This document shows, piece after piece, positions 15,001 to 51,000 of a DNA stretch of 64,000 bases. A program made the position numbers. The number at the start of each line of letters is the position of its first letter. The stretch's first letter is position 1. The stretch is from an uncultured Dehalococcoidia bacterium (GTDB lineage: Bacteria > Chloroflexota > Dehalococcoidia > Lucifugimonadales > UBA3495): contig CATMOE010000003.1 of NCBI GenBank assembly GCA_950072105.1, forward strand, positions 1-64,000. The letters are read 5' to 3'.

Positions 15001-18000
15001 AGAGTGAGGAATATTTCACGGTGCTCAAGCGACTGGGAAAAGAGGTGGAGTTCGTGCGATTTCCCGACTGTTCCCACCTATTTCTCCGGGTGGGCCACCC
15101 CAAGATGCGGGAAGAGTACCTGGCCCGGACGCTTGGATGGTTCGATAAGTGGCTGTAGTGGCCGATGGCTCTCGACCGGCGTCTATTGATGAAATGGCGC
15201 GCCGTTAACGCCGTTTGGCGCCGATAGAGGTTGGGAATGGCCTTTGGGTTCCTCCGGCAGAACGGGTTGGCGGGCGCCTGGAGGGGCTTTGGCCCAGGTA
15301 TCGCCCCAGGGAACGTCGGGGAGGCTTCGAGACCGGCGCACTTCGTTGATGGTTAATACTCCACGGTCCAAAAGTTGGGCCTCCCGGGACACGCGGCTGT
15401 TTTCGTCTTCCCGCGGGGCCTCAATGCTACTGATGTCGAACTTGACTTCCAGATCGGGATAGCCGAATCGGGGCAATAGCATCCGGTTGAGCTGCTCTTC
15501 CAAGAATCCGAGCTCGGGCAGCATCGTGTTTCGCCAGAAGATCCGCTCGGAGGCGTTGATGTTGGAGAAAGTTGCCCGCTCAAGGTCGGATAGTAAAGGC
15601 TTGGGCACACCGTAAACCCGGCTGACTTCCTCAAGGCTCCATCGAAGTCCTTGTATGAAGTCCATGTCACGATGGCTGAATCCCAGGGTTTTGATGTCAC
15701 GAACGAAGCTGGCGATGGCCGGCCTGTTGGCGTTGCCAGGGCCCCGGTGCCGGGCTTCCCAGCGGTTGTAGAACTCTTCGATCTCCATATCGGTCATGCT
15801 GTCGTTGGTGAGCAGCACAAAGTCCGGCCGGGCCGAATTCCGGAGGAAGTTGCGGTTAGATCTGAGACCTTCCAGCCCCATGTCGACAGACATCCGGGCT
15901 GGGGCTAGGGGAGACAGCCCGGCGTACTCTTCCAGAGGGTTAAAGTAACGGAGCCACAGTATCTCGTTAGTGGTGTAGGCAACCGGTCCGTTCCGGCCCG
16001 TATACACAAACCCCTTTATGTATTGTTCCTTATCCGGAATTATGTTCACCCGGTCGGGCCGTAGCGGCCATATCTGCCACCGGCCATGTTCGTCCCGTTC
16101 CAGCGCCCAGAAAGCTGAGCCCCACAGGTTAAGGTAGATCTCCGTAGCCCGCCATAGGTCGCCCCTAGTGAACCACGGATTCACCTGGTCCAGAACCTGT
16201 TGTAAAGGGTGGGACGATCCCACAGGCAAGCTCAGACCTTCCGGTGTCTTTCGATGGACGACGAGAGGTGGGCGAGTCAACGCCTCAGCCCGCAGTTTTA
16301 CCGCGGCGTAAACGGAAACTGCCTTGACATAGTAATCACCGTATTCGGTCCTGGCCCAGCCGCCGTTCCGTCCAACCACTCCATCCATCCAGTCTAGATC
16401 GGTGGCTGATGCCCGGTTGGCCCGCTGCCGGATGGAGTGGCTTTGTAACAATGTGGAGATGCTCTGACCGCCGAACCGGAACGTTCGCCCCAAAGGGACG
16501 GCGGGGAAGCTGTCTTTGAAACGCCGGTACACCTGCCCCAAGGCGGGCAAGGATGCCGAGAGTATAGATCTGAAGGTCATATTGATATCCTCCTAGCACC
16601 GAGGTTTGCGATCAGCCGTGGGAGCAACCGTTCACTTAGGGTATGTTGACGGCCGCAGGGGCGGTGGTAGAACAGGCGTACCACGAACGGCTTTGGTGAC
16701 GTGTTAATCAAAATGGGAAGCAGCGGAATTTCAAGTCCACAGTCTGGTGTGGTGATCCTGTTCGACGAAGGCCAGCATCAGCGCGTCGGCCTTGTCGGGC
16801 GAAGGGAGGCCGCGGCCGCGCATGGCTTCCTTGCTTTCGAGATATATTCTGCCATGGCTATCGTAGCTGTAGCGCAACGCGGCCAGTTCTCCCATCAACT
16901 GGCTGTCCCGGGGAATCTTGATCTGCCCGGAGGCGAACAACTCGCTTAACCTCCAGTAGCCCTCGGCCCGGGTGTTGGTAAAAATACCTTCGTGCCGGGC
17001 CCGCCGGGCCACGTTGATGCCGCGCACGTTGTATCCTTGCTCGCGGAGCCGGTCCACGACGCCGGCTCCCACGCCGATCTCGTCGATGTACATGCGGTCG
17101 GGGTGGCACTCCTTGATCGCCGCCACCACCCAGCCCGCCAATTGCATGGTGTCCAGTTTTTGGAAAGTCTGGATATCCTCCACTCGGTTGCCCCGCCGCC
17201 TAAGGATGACACTGCGGTCGGAGCCGAAGCGGGCCACGTCTACCGCTAGAACGGTGTCCTCGGCTTCATCCGGCTGATCTTCATCGGTGGCAGGAACTTG
17301 GTCTTCGACGGCGGCCTCAATGTCGGACAGCTTGATGAGGGTATCCTCCGCCTGATCAGGGAATTCCCCCAGAACCCGGGCCAAGAAGATAGGATTGTTT
17401 TCACCCCAGGTCTCCCGGCGCTCTTCAACCCATTCGGCGGTGGTCAGTCCCGGGACCACCACCTTGTTAGACGTTACGTTGGGGCTGTCCAGCGCGGAGA
17501 TAGTGACCGTGTAATAGAGGCGCCGTTCTTGGTAAAAGGCCGGGCGGAAGGCCCCGGTGACAGTGGTGGGATTACCGATAAGCAACAGACGAGGTGATGC
17601 CGAGGTCATCACCGCTTCCACGGCCTCGTAAATCTCGTCGCTCAAACCCTCGGCTTCATCAACAACGATGAGCATGTTGGGGCTGTGGAAGCCCTGGAAT
17701 TGGTCGGCAGTGTCGGCGGACAGGCCGATGGCGTAGCGGTCATCGGCAAGCTCCCACCGAGTGTCCAAGATCTTGCCGCCCAGAACGTCCGGCGCCCGGC
17801 GGTACAAACGGCGGATCTGCCGCCACAATACGTGCCGGACTTGGCGAAAGGTTGGGGCGGTGCTGAGTACGATGGCGGGATCGTGGCAATAAAGGAACCA
17901 CAAGACTGCTACGGCGGCGCAGTATCCTTTCCCCAGTCCGTTGCCCGACTTAACCGCCACCCGCCGGTTTTCAAACAGCGCGGAAAGCACCTCCTCTTGT

Positions 18001-48000: not shown

Positions 48001-51000
48001 AGGGAAGAAGGCCCCAGAGGTCTCCGGGATGAGGTTCTTAGCGGGCGGTGGCTGGGGACTCCTCCCACGACGGTGCACAAAGTAATCGTCGAATACTCCG
48101 ACGAATCCTGAGCCATGCCATTGTCCTTAGTTCGCCGGAGCGTCCGCCGGACCCATCGGGCCGCGATCCGCCGCCGGCCATATCAACTCCGGGTAAAGAT
48201 AGTGGATGGCAGCACCAGCATCAGCCGGCAACACCTGCTGGCGCCGGTAAGGGGCTACCATGTCCGGCTCATTCGAGTCAAGGTGCTTCAGACTTCCAGC
48301 GACGGCCGGCATTTGTGGGAATTGTTCTTCGGGGATGCCGGTAACATGATTACCGCTCCCAACCGGTCGATCGACGTTCTGGCCGTGCCTGACGCGGGCA
48401 GCGCAGTAACCCGCACGTATTCCAGGAGCCAGGGACCCCGAGGCAAAAAGGACGAAGTGCTCAGCGGAAGATGGCGAGGAGTGGCTCCAACGTCAACTAC
48501 TAAAATCATTATCGAATACACCGAAGAGGCGTAGCACCGCCTTGATTTCCGTAGTGGGAATTCAAATCCGTTCCCATTTTCAGGAAGGCTATAGGGAGTA
48601 AAACATGGCGCGTGAAGCATATAGGTCCCTGTATGGTGACCTAACCAAGCTCAAAGACGATAGTCTACTGAAGGACCCAGCTGCCGGTGCCGGTGACGAC
48701 AACGAGATGTTCCAGTTGCTTCTGGCCGTATCGGACTGGGTGGATCATTTCTGTAACCGTTATTTCTATTCCAAGACGCAGACAATGGAGTTCGACGGCA
48801 CCGGCTCCACCAGGCTGCTGATTCCCGATCTGGTGTCGCTGACTTCTCTAAAAGAGGATTCCACCGACGACCAATCGTTCAACGAAACATGGGCGGCCGG
48901 CGATTATCGGCTTGAACCCTATAACGGCGAACCGGAACAGCACTGGGGTGAGCCTCATACCTCTATCCGAGTCCGGCAGCATGGCGCCAAGACCACATTC
49001 AGCAGTGGGGAGCAGCGATTCCAGATCGCCGGTGTCTGGGGCTATCGTCAATATAAAGAGGACAGTGGCACAGACCTCAACGACGCTGCAATGGCGGCCA
49101 CAAAAATCACTGTCCCGGTTGACGACGGGACTCAGTTCGCTATTGGACAGACCATTATGATAGGCAGCGAGCAGATGCTCATTACGGATATATCCACCAA
49201 CGATCTAACGGTGACCAGGGGGTTGAACGGCACCACCGGCGTCGCTCACGCCGACAACTCGGACGTTTTCACCCTCCGTTGGCCCGCATCTATCGAGCGT
49301 GCGGTTCTCATACAGGCCTCGCGAATTTGGACTAGGGCCGCCGATTTCGAGCCATTTTTCGTGGATGCCGACGTAGACACTGATGTTCGCATTCTGGGCG
49401 AACCCTATAAACGGCTTCCTATTTAGCCGGTTAACGGATATCTCCCCGTCCACCTGATTCTGGGTCCGCCGTCGACCGATTGCCCCATCGCGTTTCAAAG
49501 CCGCTCGGTTCATGGGCAATCGATTCCCTCTGCGCATGTCCATGCGCAGAGGGAATGCCGATGCATTCATATTTCCTTTTTATGGGTCCGGCCACGGTAT
49601 CACTTGACTTGCCAGGGTGAGTAAGCTAAGATTCGGCCGCTCTCACATATTAAGTATTACATTCTATTATTTGGATATGCCTGGGATAGCTGCTGCTTTC
49701 CCGTTGAGGCTGGGAATGTAAAGCTTCGGTTCGCCAGATTGAATTTAGATTCATCTGGTGGATTTGAACGTAACACCCGCCTGAACGTGGTAGGGGCACT
49801 TAGTACCAAGAAGACGGAGGATTAGTTATGCGGACACACCCTTGGGTTAACACTCGGACGTTGCTGCCAATCTTGGCAGCTTCTTTATTGTTGCTGGCCG
49901 TTGCCTGCGGCGGAACCGCGGCCACGCCAACTGTGATAGAGAAAGAGGTTATTGTCGAGAGGGAAGTCATCAAGGAAGTACCCGTTGAAAAGCAAGTAAT
50001 CGTCGAGAGAGAAGTCATTAAAGAGGTCATCAAAGAAGTCCCGGTTGATCGAGAAGTCATCAAAGAGGTAGAGGTCATAAAAGAGGTGGAGAAGCAGGTG
50101 ATCAAAGAGGTCATCATCCGGGCCACTAACACTCCTATACCGACCGCTACCCCAGGCGCCCGGCAGACCCCGGTGCCCAGCCAGGCGCCCGTGTACGGAC
50201 AGCACGTTAACATGCGGGCTTACGCCGACACCAAGGACTGGGACCCGCTGGGTTCCTCATCTCTTTCCAGCGTGATCTCCTACTCCCAGCTCTACAACCA
50301 GGTGGTGCAGTACGACACGATCGACACCAGTAGAATCGTCTGCGACCTGTGTACGAGTTGGGAGATCTCCAACGCCGGCAAGACATTCACGTTCCATCTC
50401 AATAGGAATGCCAAATGGTTCGACGGTACGGACCTAACCTCCGCCGATGTGGTTTACGCTCTTAAGCGCTATTACGATCCCGATGTCTCTATCGGCAGGT
50501 CAGGACTTACCCGCAACTATGTCGATGAGAATCTTGACAACGGTTTGAAGGCCATCGACGGCGACACCGTGGAGTTCAACCTCCAGTTCGCTTCGGGGGC
50601 GTTCATCAAGTTCTTGGCAGTCGACTACGCTAAGATTCTCCCCAAGCACATAATGGAACAAGGGGTAGACCTGAACCAGGCTGAAAACGTCCTCAAATAC
50701 AATGCTGGCTCCGGTCCCTTCATCTTGCAGGAGTATAAACGAGGCAACTTCTACAAGGTGGAGAAGAACCCCAATTACTTCAAAGTGGGACGTCCCTTCT
50801 TCGACTCCATAGATCACTACATCATCACTGACGCCTCCCGCTACATCTCGGCCCTCAAAGTGGGCCAGATCGACATGTCCAACGCTGGCGGGGCGTCTCT
50901 GACCCCCAAACAAAACATCCAACTGGTGGAGGACACCGACAGCGAGGTCGTGGCCCACTTCTTGTCACCGTCCTTCAACGTGGGTCTGATGATAAACCGC

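Follow-up and report, generated by a model that had tools for sequence, protein, structure and literature searches.

The window, by which we mean the whole 64-kb stretch of DNA analyzed, carries head and packaging genes at two loci (Table 1). The first locus (15183-18290, minus strand) encodes a zinc-ribbon protein, the large terminase TerL and the portal protein, and the second (41502-49426, plus strand) encodes a prohead protease, an HK97-type capsid protein, small virion-type proteins, two jelly-roll cement-like proteins and a head-to-tail adaptor. The ~24 kb separating both loci are occupied by ordinary host genes: MFS, FAD oxidoreductase, ADH, PrpD, queCDEF, Na/H exchanger, histidine kinase and LuxR regulator genes, two archaellin-like genes, GGT and an Fe-S protein gene. 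Profile matches reproduced the coordinates and identities that a first-pass annotation had given for TerL, portal, protease, capsid and adaptor. Its statement that integrase, lysis and tail genes are missing agrees with the lack of matches to such families among the ORFs scanned in the 64-kb window, where neither a small terminase nor a connector was found. Overlooked in it were an in-frame TAA in the protease gene, a frameshift in a fiber-like gene, and the position of most portal "stops" at the ends of matches.

Table 1. Features of the two loci and their surroundings in the window.
Feature	Coordinates	Strand	Evidence and remarks
Portal protein, 465 aa	15183..16580	-	PF04860 5e-66; phrog_2662 3.9e-75; TIGR01537 139.7 bits
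Large terminase TerL, 449 aa	16731..18080	-	phrog_2 4.6e-40; PF17289 24.3 bits
CxxC...CxxC zinc-ribbon protein, 67 aa	18087..18290	-	Usual small-terminase position; Zn_ribbon_4 7.6e-5, below cut-off
Weak leader-hairpin copy	18305..18359	-	Upstream of zinc-ribbon/TerL operon; third-best R1 match in window, filters off, E 0.075
Acidic protein, 61 aa	18750..18935	-	Steady module neighbor: tblastn 50-72% identity, few kb from TerL/portal or protease in f1, f14, f5 loci; no family match
Terminator-like leader hairpin GGGACAGACCC..GGATCTGTCCC-TTTC	41413..41464	+	77 nt before protease start; no co-directional gene upstream
Prohead serine protease (S78)	41502..42314	+	PF04586 29.1 bits; TIGR01543; phrog_80
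HK97-type major capsid protein, 447 aa, N-terminal delta/scaffold region	42382..43725	+	TIGR01554 44.9 bits (cut-off 27.5); phrog_10 4.9e-12
Small virion-type protein, 152 aa	43788..44246	+	3' of capsid gene in f1, f14, f2, f49 genomes and circular elements
Beta-rich protein, 204 aa, variable region	44319..44933	+	In some f1 and f14 loci and circular L253; no family match
Small virion-type protein, 90 aa	45230..45502	+	f1, f5, f2, f49 loci; Atlas look-alikes are unnamed viral clusters
Fiber-like protein, conserved N-terminal anchor and variable C-terminus	45503..46548	+	Frameshift near 45650
Two ORFs, 213 aa and 122 aa, variable region	46549..47519	+	Common only to close relatives; no family match
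Jelly-roll cement-like protein, paralog 1	47698..48111	+	True start is Met at residue 50 of 186-aa ORF
Jelly-roll cement-like protein, paralog 2, 139 aa, basic N-terminal arm	48115..48534	+	AF2 pLDDT 88
Head-to-tail adaptor, 273 aa, inserted beta domain	48605..49426	+	phrog_442 1.4e-10; AF2 pLDDT 90

TerL adjoins the portal gene in 19 of 23 genomes examined, and its residues K51 (Walker A), E142 (Walker B) and D281/D333/D429/D432 (nuclease) are invariant among 21 portal-adjacent orthologs. By tblastn, the zinc-ribbon protein was located immediately upstream of TerL in families f1, f14, f5, f2, f21 and f52. The stop codons previously reported in the portal genes of relatives stood only in part: most fall at the ends of tblastn matches, whereas 4 of 29 relatives have a stop inside the HSP and two have a frame change.

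The protease reading frame of the window is cut by the TAA codon at 41706-41708, which precedes the codons of the catalytic His and Ser. None of 100 loci of relatives has a stop at the same position; the codon is CAA in 95-97% identical contigs, whereas TAA recurs in other assemblies, in two contigs of 100% identity. The nonsense change CAA>TAA is recent. ORFs 45503-45988 and 45724-46548 are pieces, in different frames, of a single fiber-like gene, which forms one ORF of 298-414 aa in all eight relatives compared; its intact forms match phrog_20556 (tail/baseplate) at 1e-13 to 3e-16. The nonsense codon and the frameshift, both fresh, have probably crippled the window copy. All 23 genomes checked for breaks have an intact capsid gene. 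The 152-aa protein encoded next to it, possibly a head decoration, has no match in Pfam, PHROG or PDB, and its Atlas look-alikes are unnamed clusters, 92-94% viral. The cement-like paralogs share 46% identity, and relatives of the first begin with MTTRR and are ~130 aa long. For the second, Foldseek ranks the trimeric cement protein from phage KHP40 first (7dou_4, E 1.6e-4); VIA gives Z 8-9 to many jelly rolls, so the fold is generic. Foldseek matches of the adaptor are adaptor chains of Mycofy1 (9lw9_C), the RcGTA neck (6toa_C, 6te8_B, 6tba_2A) and T5 (9ilp_a). Across the order the adaptor is 271-292 aa long at 29-77% identity; a connector of ~140 aa accompanies it in most relatives, and a connector-class protein (phrog_17840) occurs in most families.

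A terminator-like hairpin is present in 64 of 73 protease leaders, and its pairs co-vary (AU 27 / GC 24 / CG 3 and GC 35 / CG 19). The protease-leader hairpin is the top genome-wide match of model R1 in each of six genomes. Clearer copies than the one before the zinc-ribbon gene of the window occur upstream of TerL in L065, L084, L089 and L073; the window copy at 18305..18359 could alternatively terminate transcription of the co-directional gene at 18750-18935. The hairpins belong to the class of intrinsic terminators, and R1 also picks up ordinary 3' terminators at 28-32 bits. Alternatively, the leader palindrome may act as a DNA operator.

In a sample of 201 genomes of the order, the portal was found in 82, the capsid in 75 and TerL in 71, consistently within families; only 5 of 237 genomes of the class outside the order have a relative. 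Loss of the module is common, because it is found in only about 40% of the sampled genomes of the order. With a window-type query, TerL was not found in families f23 (0/7) or f13 (0/3), where portal and capsid are present; f23 also retains the adaptor, and the f13 genome G069 has a TerL of another type. The distance from portal to capsid varies from about 1.5 kb to >1 Mb, the halves being 24 kb to >1 Mb apart in many genomes and the set being contiguous in L172, L065 and L073. Among 65 related capsid loci with at least 5 kb of upstream sequence, the Fe-S gene lies upstream in 43, within 2.6 kb in 30, and TerL/portal lies upstream in only 5. The capsid locus is at one chromosomal junction in 30 of the 65 related species. 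The module was contiguous in the ancestor, as it still is in some genomes; the split predates the divergence of dozens of species, and purifying selection persisted afterwards.

We built RpoB, capsid and portal trees from 41 genomes. An 18-row clade of f1, f14 and f5 (support 100) and a 16-row clade (98-100) are common to all three, and Mantel correlations are high (rpoB~capsid r 0.88, rpoB~portal 0.83, capsid~portal 0.94), none of 2000 permutations reaching the observed values. The median capsid/RpoB distance ratio is 1.04, so the capsid diverges at RpoB's pace. The NG86 estimates of dN/dS, which are rough at such divergence, are 0.17 for the capsid, 0.20 for the protease, 0.24 for the adaptor, 0.26-0.27 for the cement proteins, 0.37 for the portal and 0.41 for TerL; those of flanking genes are 0.18 (GGT), 0.10 (Fe-S) and 0.33 (SBP5). 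The capsid in the split-junction set has a dN/dS of 0.15, with a maximum of 0.30. Contigs from RNA libraries cover the capsid and small genes in 4 of 4 runs examined, at low depth and with DNA carry-over possible, which hints at their transcription. The module is chromosomally fixed, has no integrase, replication, lysis or recognizable tail genes, and has co-diverged with its hosts over a large part of this Dehalococcoidia order of deep-ocean SAR202 bacteria. The proposal of a head and packaging module of old date, kept vertically, rather than a prophage is thus borne out by the RpoB-congruent trees, the common junction, the dN/dS of 0.15-0.3 and the preserved TerL catalytic residues. It had also been called undescribed, and our literature searches turned up no description of such a module for SAR202 or Dehalococcoidia.

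These data bear on whether the genes are an inert remnant, that is, slowly decaying fragments of an old prophage or satellite that are now functionless. Such decay would account for the protease and fiber lesions of the window, for the absence of the set from about 60% of the sampled genomes of the order, and for the 10 of 23 genomes in which one or more core genes seem to be broken (protease in G000; portal stop in G111 and G069; portal frameshift in G197 and G020; TerL in G137, G145, G063 and G052; adaptor in G119). Part of these breaks may be long-read assembly errors. However, the dN/dS values are comparable to those of flanking host genes, no capsid gene is broken in the 23 genomes, the TerL catalytic residues are invariant across families, the adaptor keeps its length at low identity, and the leader hairpin co-varies; we therefore give this explanation very little credence.

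The order also harbors a myovirus prophage (G041/G028, loci L096-L098) with a homologous portal (33-35% identity), S78 protease, capsid (52-55% identity) and phrog_442 adaptor. Unlike the module, it has a phrog_38 TerL, a head-morphogenesis protein, neck, sheath, tape measure, baseplate, methylases and an integrase; it has no leader hairpin. This prophage is mobile, since it is nearly identical in two families with an RpoB distance of 0.75, and the pair, with a capsid distance of 0.07, breaks the congruence.

The nearest mobile relatives are tail-less, capsid-forming, cf-PICI-like circles of 12.8-14.8 kb. L253 and L251 are circular, with an exact terminal repeat of 123 nt in L253 and a repeat of 126 nt in L251. 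Both carry adaptor, portal, TerS, TerL, protease, capsid and cement protein genes and no tail genes, their capsids being 66-67% identical to that of the window; L251 additionally has an integrase. The L253 capsid nests within the chromosomal f1 clade, which indicates that head genes move between chromosome and mobile elements. According to two reports, the capsids that cf-PICIs release are filled with DNA but tail-less and attach to phage tails afterwards, with tail compatibility set by adaptor and connector (10.1101/2025.02.11.637232; PMC10085698), and one cf-PICI cut its helper phage >100-fold (10.1101/2025.02.11.637232). The SAR202 module resembles cf-PICIs in having its own small-capsid gene set (terminase, portal, protease, HK97-type capsid, adaptor, connector) and no tail or lysis genes, and L251 and L253 share their layout. 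Unlike cf-PICIs, the SAR202 set lacks an integrase, alpA and a replication module, its parts are spread over 24 kb to >1 Mb, and it has co-diverged with RpoB across the whole order; in addition, the window has a zinc-ribbon protein at the TerS position and no connector. The host phylum of the set is Chloroflexota, whereas PMC10085698 assigns most satellites to Proteobacteria and Firmicutes.

The set could still be a selfish resident satellite, integrated and rarely moving, that is kept by its own transmission with helper-phage tails and confers no host benefit. Its architecture equals the packaging module of L251 and L253, it is contiguous in three loci, an XRE/ImmA-like pair adjoins it in G001 and G049, L253 attests exchange with mobile elements, and frequent gene breakage fits a parasite under purging. 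We nevertheless regard this as unlikely: the window, L172, L072 and L073 yielded no integrase; halves so far apart cannot exit together; species with the common split show a capsid dN/dS of 0.15, which demonstrates in part that constraint is equally strong in split and contiguous sets; the RpoB congruence is tight; and a mobile-type TerL was detected, weakly, in only 1 of 201 genomes of the order. A split set is unable to package itself, so the fact that it is maintained suggests that the host benefits.

RcGTA of Alphaproteobacteria consists of phage-derived structural genes that are chromosomally fixed and spread over more than one locus; they have been inherited vertically within a taxon of high rank, and purifying selection acts on them. 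The SAR202 structural genes are likewise chromosomal, vertical, under purifying selection and at more than one locus, and the predicted adaptor model resembles the RcGTA neck chains. The tail of RcGTA is complete (tube, tape measure, baseplate, fibers), whereas none was found for the SAR202 module. Random packaging of host DNA and host regulation are demonstrated for RcGTA and would be hypothetical for the SAR202 module. Were the module a classical gene transfer agent complete with tail, its tail, lysis and regulatory genes would have to lie elsewhere in the genome and be too divergent to recognize, like scattered RcGTA loci. The adaptor retained everywhere, the connector-class protein of most families, the phrog_20556 anchor of the fiber-like protein and the insensitivity of family searches for such genes would fit this. 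Yet all tail proteins of the related myovirus prophage were without a tblastn match in G000 (92% complete); PF10145, PF04984 and PF04865 gave no match in a weak search, of the same kind that missed the capsid of the window; genome-wide matches of the leader model beyond both operons are ordinary 3' terminators; and the nearest mobile relatives are themselves tail-less. This explanation is accordingly quite improbable. The earlier suggestion of a GTA-like or other domesticated capsid system is thus narrowed: the closest architecture is a tail-less cf-PICI-like satellite and not a tailed GTA, and the module can be called GTA-like only tentatively.

We favor, with a probability of roughly 0.6, the reading that both loci are halves of one ancient tail-less capsid and packaging module, fixed and satellite-like, that is maintained by host-level selection. 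Counting against it are the broken core genes, the frequent loss, the families in which TerL was not found, the missing small terminase and connector of the window, and the nesting of the L253 capsid. We infer that the module has a capsid-forming satellite as its ancestor or sister, a kind of element still circulating as the 12.8-14.8 kb circles. In the proposed working, a signal would let transcription read past the terminator-like hairpins that precede both operons. Proheads would assemble on the portal and then be matured by the protease, TerL would fill them with DNA, and the adaptor, joined in most relatives by the ~140-aa connector, would seal the portal and present a docking face. Since such particles would have no tail of their own, they might borrow the tails of infecting myoviruses for DNA delivery (tail piracy, as in cf-PICIs) or, alternatively, divert phage parts.

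A host tool that transfers no DNA, with capsids that capture phage tails and packaging factors as decoys or sinks, or that enclose proteins or nucleic acids as a compartment, would be in keeping with the strong interference of some satellites with helper phages and with the portal, capsid and adaptor of family f23, where no TerL was found. We hold it to be a slim prospect, as TerL with intact ATPase and nuclease motifs adjoins the portal in most genomes, an argument for counting DNA packaging among the functions under selection. For the module maintained by host-level selection, this function would be tail-dependent gene transfer or phage interference. The module is inherited with the chromosome and selection keeps its genes in shape, and thus these bacteria probably use it themselves.

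Two head and packaging loci lie in the window, with host genes filling the 24 kb between them and the flanks. The first-pass annotation had described this split arrangement, and our searches confirm it: the identities of the portal, large terminase (TerL), protease, capsid and adaptor are reproduced (see the table). Portal, protease and capsid attain curated Pfam or TIGRFAM family scores and TerL carries ATPase and nuclease motifs, as in an HK97-type head module; against PF05065 the capsid reaches only 21.7 bits, under the cut-off of 24.2. The host genes encode an MFS protein, an FAD oxidoreductase, ADH, PrpD, QueCDEF, a Na/H exchanger, a Lon-like domain, a histidine kinase, a LuxR regulator, two archaellin-like proteins, GGT and an Fe-S protein, followed by an oligopeptide ABC system. 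The two archaellin-type genes are adjacent to each other in this bacterial genome, and the histidine kinase and LuxR-type response regulator adjoin the pair.

Features of the two loci, of the DNA between them and of selected related loci (L numbers) in other genomes (G numbers)
Feature	Position	Strand	Matches and remarks
Portal	15183-18290 locus	-	PF04860 5e-66, 223.5 bits (cut-off 39.1); phrog_2662 3.9e-75; TIGR01537 139.7 bits (cut-off 112.05)
TerL (large terminase)	15183-18290 locus	-	phrog_2 4.6e-40
67-aa zinc-ribbon protein	15183-18290 locus, directly upstream of TerL	-	CxxC...CxxC
Candidate match of hairpin model R1	18305-18359		E 0.075; just ahead of the zinc-ribbon gene
Archaellin-type genes	36309-36968, 37042-37668	+	PF01917 3e-22, 1e-23
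Leader hairpin	41413-41464		between the divergent Fe-S and protease genes
S78 prohead protease	first gene of 41502-49426 locus	+	PF04586 29.1 bits (cut-off 21)
TAA codon in protease frame	41706-41708
HK97-type capsid protein	41502-49426 locus	+	TIGR01554 44.9 bits (cut-off 27.5); phrog_10
Small ORFs, nine to ten	41502-49426 locus	+	besides protease, capsid and adaptor
Fibre-like gene, two ORF pieces	45503-45988, 45724-46548	+	frameshifted near 45650
Jelly-roll paralogues	47698-48111, 48115-48534	+	just before the adaptor
273-aa head-tail adaptor	41502-49426 locus	+	phrog_442
Transposase, L072 (G001)	13031-14599		phrog_11704; between portal and protease
XRE-type repressor and ImmA-like metalloprotease	L072:19013-19910, L073:883-1878		families f2, f49
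Long ORF over capsid, L172	9572-11344		590 aa
TerL with insertion, L082 (G137:C1)	1457-5829		~2.8 kb inserted between residues ~184 and ~148-258; the query ranges overlap in part

A prophage, whether intact or defective, was rejected as an explanation: the ORFs scanned in the 64-kb window gave no Pfam or PHROG match to integrase, replication, lysis, lysogeny or tail families, and thus show no unbroken run of such modules or of remnants of them. The window also contains neither a tRNA nor a compositional step. A true myovirus prophage looks different. Two relatives (L096-L097 in genome G041 and L098-L099 in G028) carry a complete one, its capsid 52-55% identical, with RusA, ParB/methylase, TerL (phrog_38), portal, protease, capsid, neck, a 1076-aa sheath, tape measure, baseplate, methylases and integrase. 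It is almost identical in two families and thus belongs to a recent or broad-host-range phage of SAR202 relatives. The annotation's statement that the loci are not a prophage is therefore borne out.

Of 201 sampled genomes of the order, 82 contain the portal, 75 the capsid and 71 TerL. Members of one family nearly always agree in having or lacking them (f5 5/5, f12 7/7 and f14 7/7; f7, f24 and f27 0/7 each), and outside the order only 5 of 237 genomes of the class, all from one family, hold a relative. The universal core consists of the zinc-ribbon protein, TerL and portal together with protease, capsid and adaptor, while the stretch from capsid to adaptor is variable. Trees of RpoB, capsid and portal built for the same 41 genomes show identical major clades and an identical order within families. 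With the two prophage rows left out, patristic distances correlate at r 0.88 (RpoB and capsid), 0.83 (RpoB and portal) and 0.94 (capsid and portal), values reached in none of 2000 permutations, and the capsid evolves at the rate of RpoB (median divergence ratio 1.04). The comparison is able to detect mobility: the prophage carriers G028 and G041, from different families, stand out with an RpoB distance of 0.75 and a capsid distance of 0.07. In an alignment of 21 orthologues, TerL residues N47, G50, K51, E142, D281, D333, D429 and D432 are invariant; by the motif names used for terminases, K51 is the Walker A lysine, E142 the Walker B glutamate and the four aspartates the nuclease residues. An encapsulin-type nanocompartment, an HK97-fold shell that needs neither portal nor terminase, was rejected on these grounds, since portal and TerL have diverged in step with the capsid (r 0.94) and the catalytic motifs are kept.

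The place of the capsid locus is also conserved. Among 65 species-representative loci of the window's wider family with at least 5 kb of upstream sequence, the same Fe-S gene lies upstream in 43 and within 2.6 kb of the capsid start in 30; TerL and portal lie upstream in only five. In those five loci and in several other families the gene order is zinc-ribbon, TerL, portal, protease, capsid ... adaptor, and this contiguous order is the likely ancestral state. Family f12 provides a second example of a fixed chromosomal position: the TerL-portal pair lies ~4-7 kb from rpoB in five of five genomes (G175, G132, G157, G068, G192). The transposase between portal and protease in L072 shows one route by which a cassette is split. 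In two families an XRE-type repressor and an ImmA-like metalloprotease adjoin the module; this pair may be an induction switch, either still active or left over. L172 has a contiguous cassette in which the longest ORF spanning the capsid begins within the protease region; it may represent a protease-capsid fusion or an artefact of ORF picking.

Pairwise dN/dS (NG86) is low for the module (capsid 0.17, protease 0.20, adaptor 0.24, cement proteins 0.26-0.27, portal 0.37, TerL 0.41); the flanking genes give 0.18 (GGT), 0.10 (Fe-S gene) and 0.33 (SBP5). Restricting the comparison to split-junction loci yields 0.15 for the capsid (maximum 0.30), 0.155 for the protease and 0.21 for the adaptor, so selection continued once the set could no longer travel as a unit. 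Congruence with RpoB, the fixed junction, low dN/dS and the invariant TerL residues uphold the view that this is an old, vertically kept head and packaging module.

Both operons may share a regulatory element. The protease gene is preceded by a hairpin, GGGACAGACCC-loop-GGATCTGTCCC, with a T run behind it. GGGAC-initial hairpins with a T tail occur in 64 of 73 protease leaders and 44 times in the whole 4.08-Mb genome, both strands together. Two stem positions co-vary (AU 27, GC 24, CG 3; GC 35, CG 19), in leader sequences that were selected for pairing, which inflates the paired fraction. A covariance model, R1, built from 57 hairpins, detects the protease leaders of eight of eight further f1, f14 and f5 genomes, and the leader hairpin is its top genome-wide match in six of six genomes. 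R1 also marks sites immediately before the TerL operon in G193 (E 1e-7), G072, G049, G197 and, weakly, G011; the sole other candidate in the window precedes the zinc-ribbon gene. The hairpin is absent from the prophage, the circular elements described below and nine rpoB loci. The element is assigned to the intrinsic terminator class, for which a 5' leader place and a conserved sequence are unusual, and this suggests read-through control of both operons. Alternatively, the palindrome could be read as a DNA operator. Further genome-wide R1 matches were rejected as additional regulon members; they score lower and are ordinary terminators at gene 3' ends. A promoter-like motif, TTGACAGNCTNGANTCCC (up to three changes), upstream of both window operons was dropped, as it recurs in only 7 of 73 protease and 2 of 18 zinc-ribbon leaders. 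Apart from this motif, the longest exact word common to both window leaders is 10 nt, and a sigma-70 scan stayed at chance level (5 found, 5.0 expected).

The 8.1-kb capsid locus is almost whole (at least 94% of sampled words) in 13 marine metagenome DNA runs and partly present in six RNA-library runs. In four runs, RNA contigs at a depth of 2-9 extend over most small genes and over parts of the capsid gene, a hint of expression that may also stem from DNA carry-over; leader and protease (41400-42212) lie outside these contigs in all four, a gap to which we attach no interpretation.

Tail genes gave no PHROG or Pfam match in the loci, and tail proteins of the related prophage gave no tblastn match in the window's genome (G000, 92% complete), which has no paralogues of the head genes either. 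Pfam searches of G000 for tape measure, sheath and baseplate J were also negative; these weigh little, because the control PF05065 missed the window's own capsid. The AlphaFold model of the adaptor (pLDDT 90, alignment of 47 orthologues) resembles portal-binding adaptor chains of phage Mycofy1, the neck of the alphaproteobacterial gene transfer agent RcGTA, T5 and DT57C, and carries an extra beta domain that recurs in tail-spike N-termini. A predicted complex of portal residues 60-440 with the adaptor scored 0.00 and is counted neither for nor against. The two paralogues ahead of the adaptor are modelled as jelly rolls of eight strands that carry a basic arm at the N-terminus (pLDDT 88), and their top Foldseek match is the trimeric cement protein of phage KHP40. 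They are likely, not proven, cement proteins, because the fold is common: many jelly rolls reach VIA Z 8-9. Profile searches against PDB sequences gave no usable match for the cement (A2), 152-aa (A5) and 90-aa (A6) families, and Pfam none among 39 cement-family members; in the Atlas, the 152-aa and 90-aa proteins resemble only unnamed, mostly viral clusters. The two ORF pieces downstream of the capsid are one gene, a single ORF of 298-414 aa in eight of eight relatives; its conserved N-terminus matches phrog_20556 (1e-13 to 3e-16) and its C-terminus is variable, a fibre pattern that makes the product fibre-like. A connector-class protein of ~140 aa (phrog_17840) follows the adaptor directly in most families (27 loci of relatives) and is absent from the window. 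TerS-like genes were found only in family f5 and the circular elements.

Mobile kin of the module were also found. The IMG/VR database contains 38 contigs with relatives, mostly short fragments of the chromosomal locus that include Fe-S or SBP5 genes. Two contigs represent circular elements of 12.8 and 14.8 kb: L253 (12,943 bp with an exact 123-nt terminal repeat) and L251 (14,913 bp with a 126-nt repeat). Both encode adaptor, portal, TerS (phrog_4044), TerL, several unknown proteins, protease, a capsid 66-67% identical to that of the window, and decoration and cement proteins, without a tail; L251 encodes an integrase as well. The portals of the two group in a separate clade (97*), but the capsid of L253 nests within the chromosomal f1 clade, so L253 is a mosaic that acquired a host-type head module. 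In Dehalococcoidia, the two circles may stand for a new family, either of capsid-forming satellites or of mini-phages. The mobile-type TerL of L253 has one weak match in 201 order genomes. Among 50,697 cultured phage records the best capsid identity is ~21-23% (T5-like heads), so no close isolate exists there. Stand-alone terminase pairs occur in many copies away from portals in G134 (L269, L270), G004 (L271, L272), G184 (L273) and G182 (L274). G134 has six full-length TerL copies, two of which share ~2.6-3.5 kb of 88-95% identical DNA including a 316-aa unknown ORF; in G004 a TerS-like HTH protein (phrog_4044, 1.8e-20) precedes TerL beside IS remnants. These pairs look like a mobile TerS-TerL unit.

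Not all head-module genes of the window are intact. In the protease frame a TAA separates the conserved DRHGD motif from the WAHD histidine motif; among 100 loci of relatives none has a stop there, the codon being GAC, GAG, GGC, CAA or another sense codon. Since two separately assembled contigs 100% identical to the window carry the same TAA, and contigs 95-97% identical have CAA, it is a genuine and recent CAA>TAA mutation rather than an assembly error. Along with the frameshift in the fibre-like gene, located from translations of both ORF pieces, it suggests that the module of this species is impaired. In a survey of five core genes in 23 genomes, the capsid is unbroken in all 23 and ten genomes show at least one apparent break: G000 (protease), G111 and G069 (portal stop), G197 and G020 (portal frame change), G137 (TerL, with a 2.8-kb insertion), G145, G063 and G052 (TerL) and G119 (adaptor); some may be long-read assembly errors, because RpoB is also split in a few assemblies. 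TerL was detected with this query in none of seven f23 genomes, which hold portal, capsid and adaptor. From breaks at the tips and from f23, the system is thus dispensable and often lost, like accessory systems.

Gene transfer agents (GTAs) are tailed phages that have been domesticated; satellites that form their own capsids are mobile and have no tail. Like RcGTA-type systems, the module consists of phage-derived structural genes that are chromosomally fixed, vertically inherited and under purifying selection, in a cluster without integration, replication or lysogeny genes. A GTA would also deliver DNA by means of tail genes, which the searches above did not reveal, and would package random host DNA in pieces smaller than its gene set; indirect evidence on the latter is the size of the related circles, 12.8-14.8 kb, against the 34 kb spanned by the window set. 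Like capsid-forming satellites (cf-PICIs), it has its own terminase, portal, protease, capsid and adaptor and lacks tail and holin, the connector being present in relatives and not in the window; L251 and L253 share the cf-PICI layout. Unlike cf-PICIs, which have an integrase and an alpA-type regulatory and replication module, the module has no integrase in the window, L172, L072 or L073, its halves are parted by host genes with no single excisable island, and it shows no horizontal spread, its trees agreeing with RpoB in contrast to the mobile prophage pair and the separate portal clade of the circles. According to two reports, cf-PICIs release tail-less, DNA-filled capsids that afterwards dock on phage tails, and adaptor and connector set tail compatibility (10.1101/2025.02.11.637232; PMC10085698).

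The module is best explained as a fixed, satellite-type, tail-less capsid and packaging machine under host-level selection, of which the window's own copy is probably impaired. We infer that it is used for tail-dependent gene transfer or phage interference. More tentatively, at a probability of about 0.3, SAR202 bacteria may have domesticated a capsid-forming satellite and now maintain it as their own organelle, with host-controlled DNA packaging, borrowed myovirus tails and a drain on phage. A host-controlled, head-only packaging machine would then be gated by a terminator-like leader common to two unlinked operons; small capsids would be filled with chromosomal DNA and delivered via the tails of infecting myoviruses, and each phage outbreak would bring a burst of gene transfer and a simultaneous drain on the phage.

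No prior description of such a module was found in the literature searched for SAR202 and Dehalococcoidia. If this reading is true, it would be the first GTA-like system in Chloroflexota and the first that is satellite-derived and tail-less. In the dark ocean SAR202 ranks with the most abundant groups of bacteria; its members have large, paralogue-rich genomes, and we know of no cultured model for it. Because the module has been kept for about as long as the families of the order exist, evolves as slowly as RpoB and was maintained after its split, it is a strong candidate for a host-owned DNA-packaging device. It bridges the GTA and satellite fields and would show that a satellite-type, tail-less machine can be domesticated.
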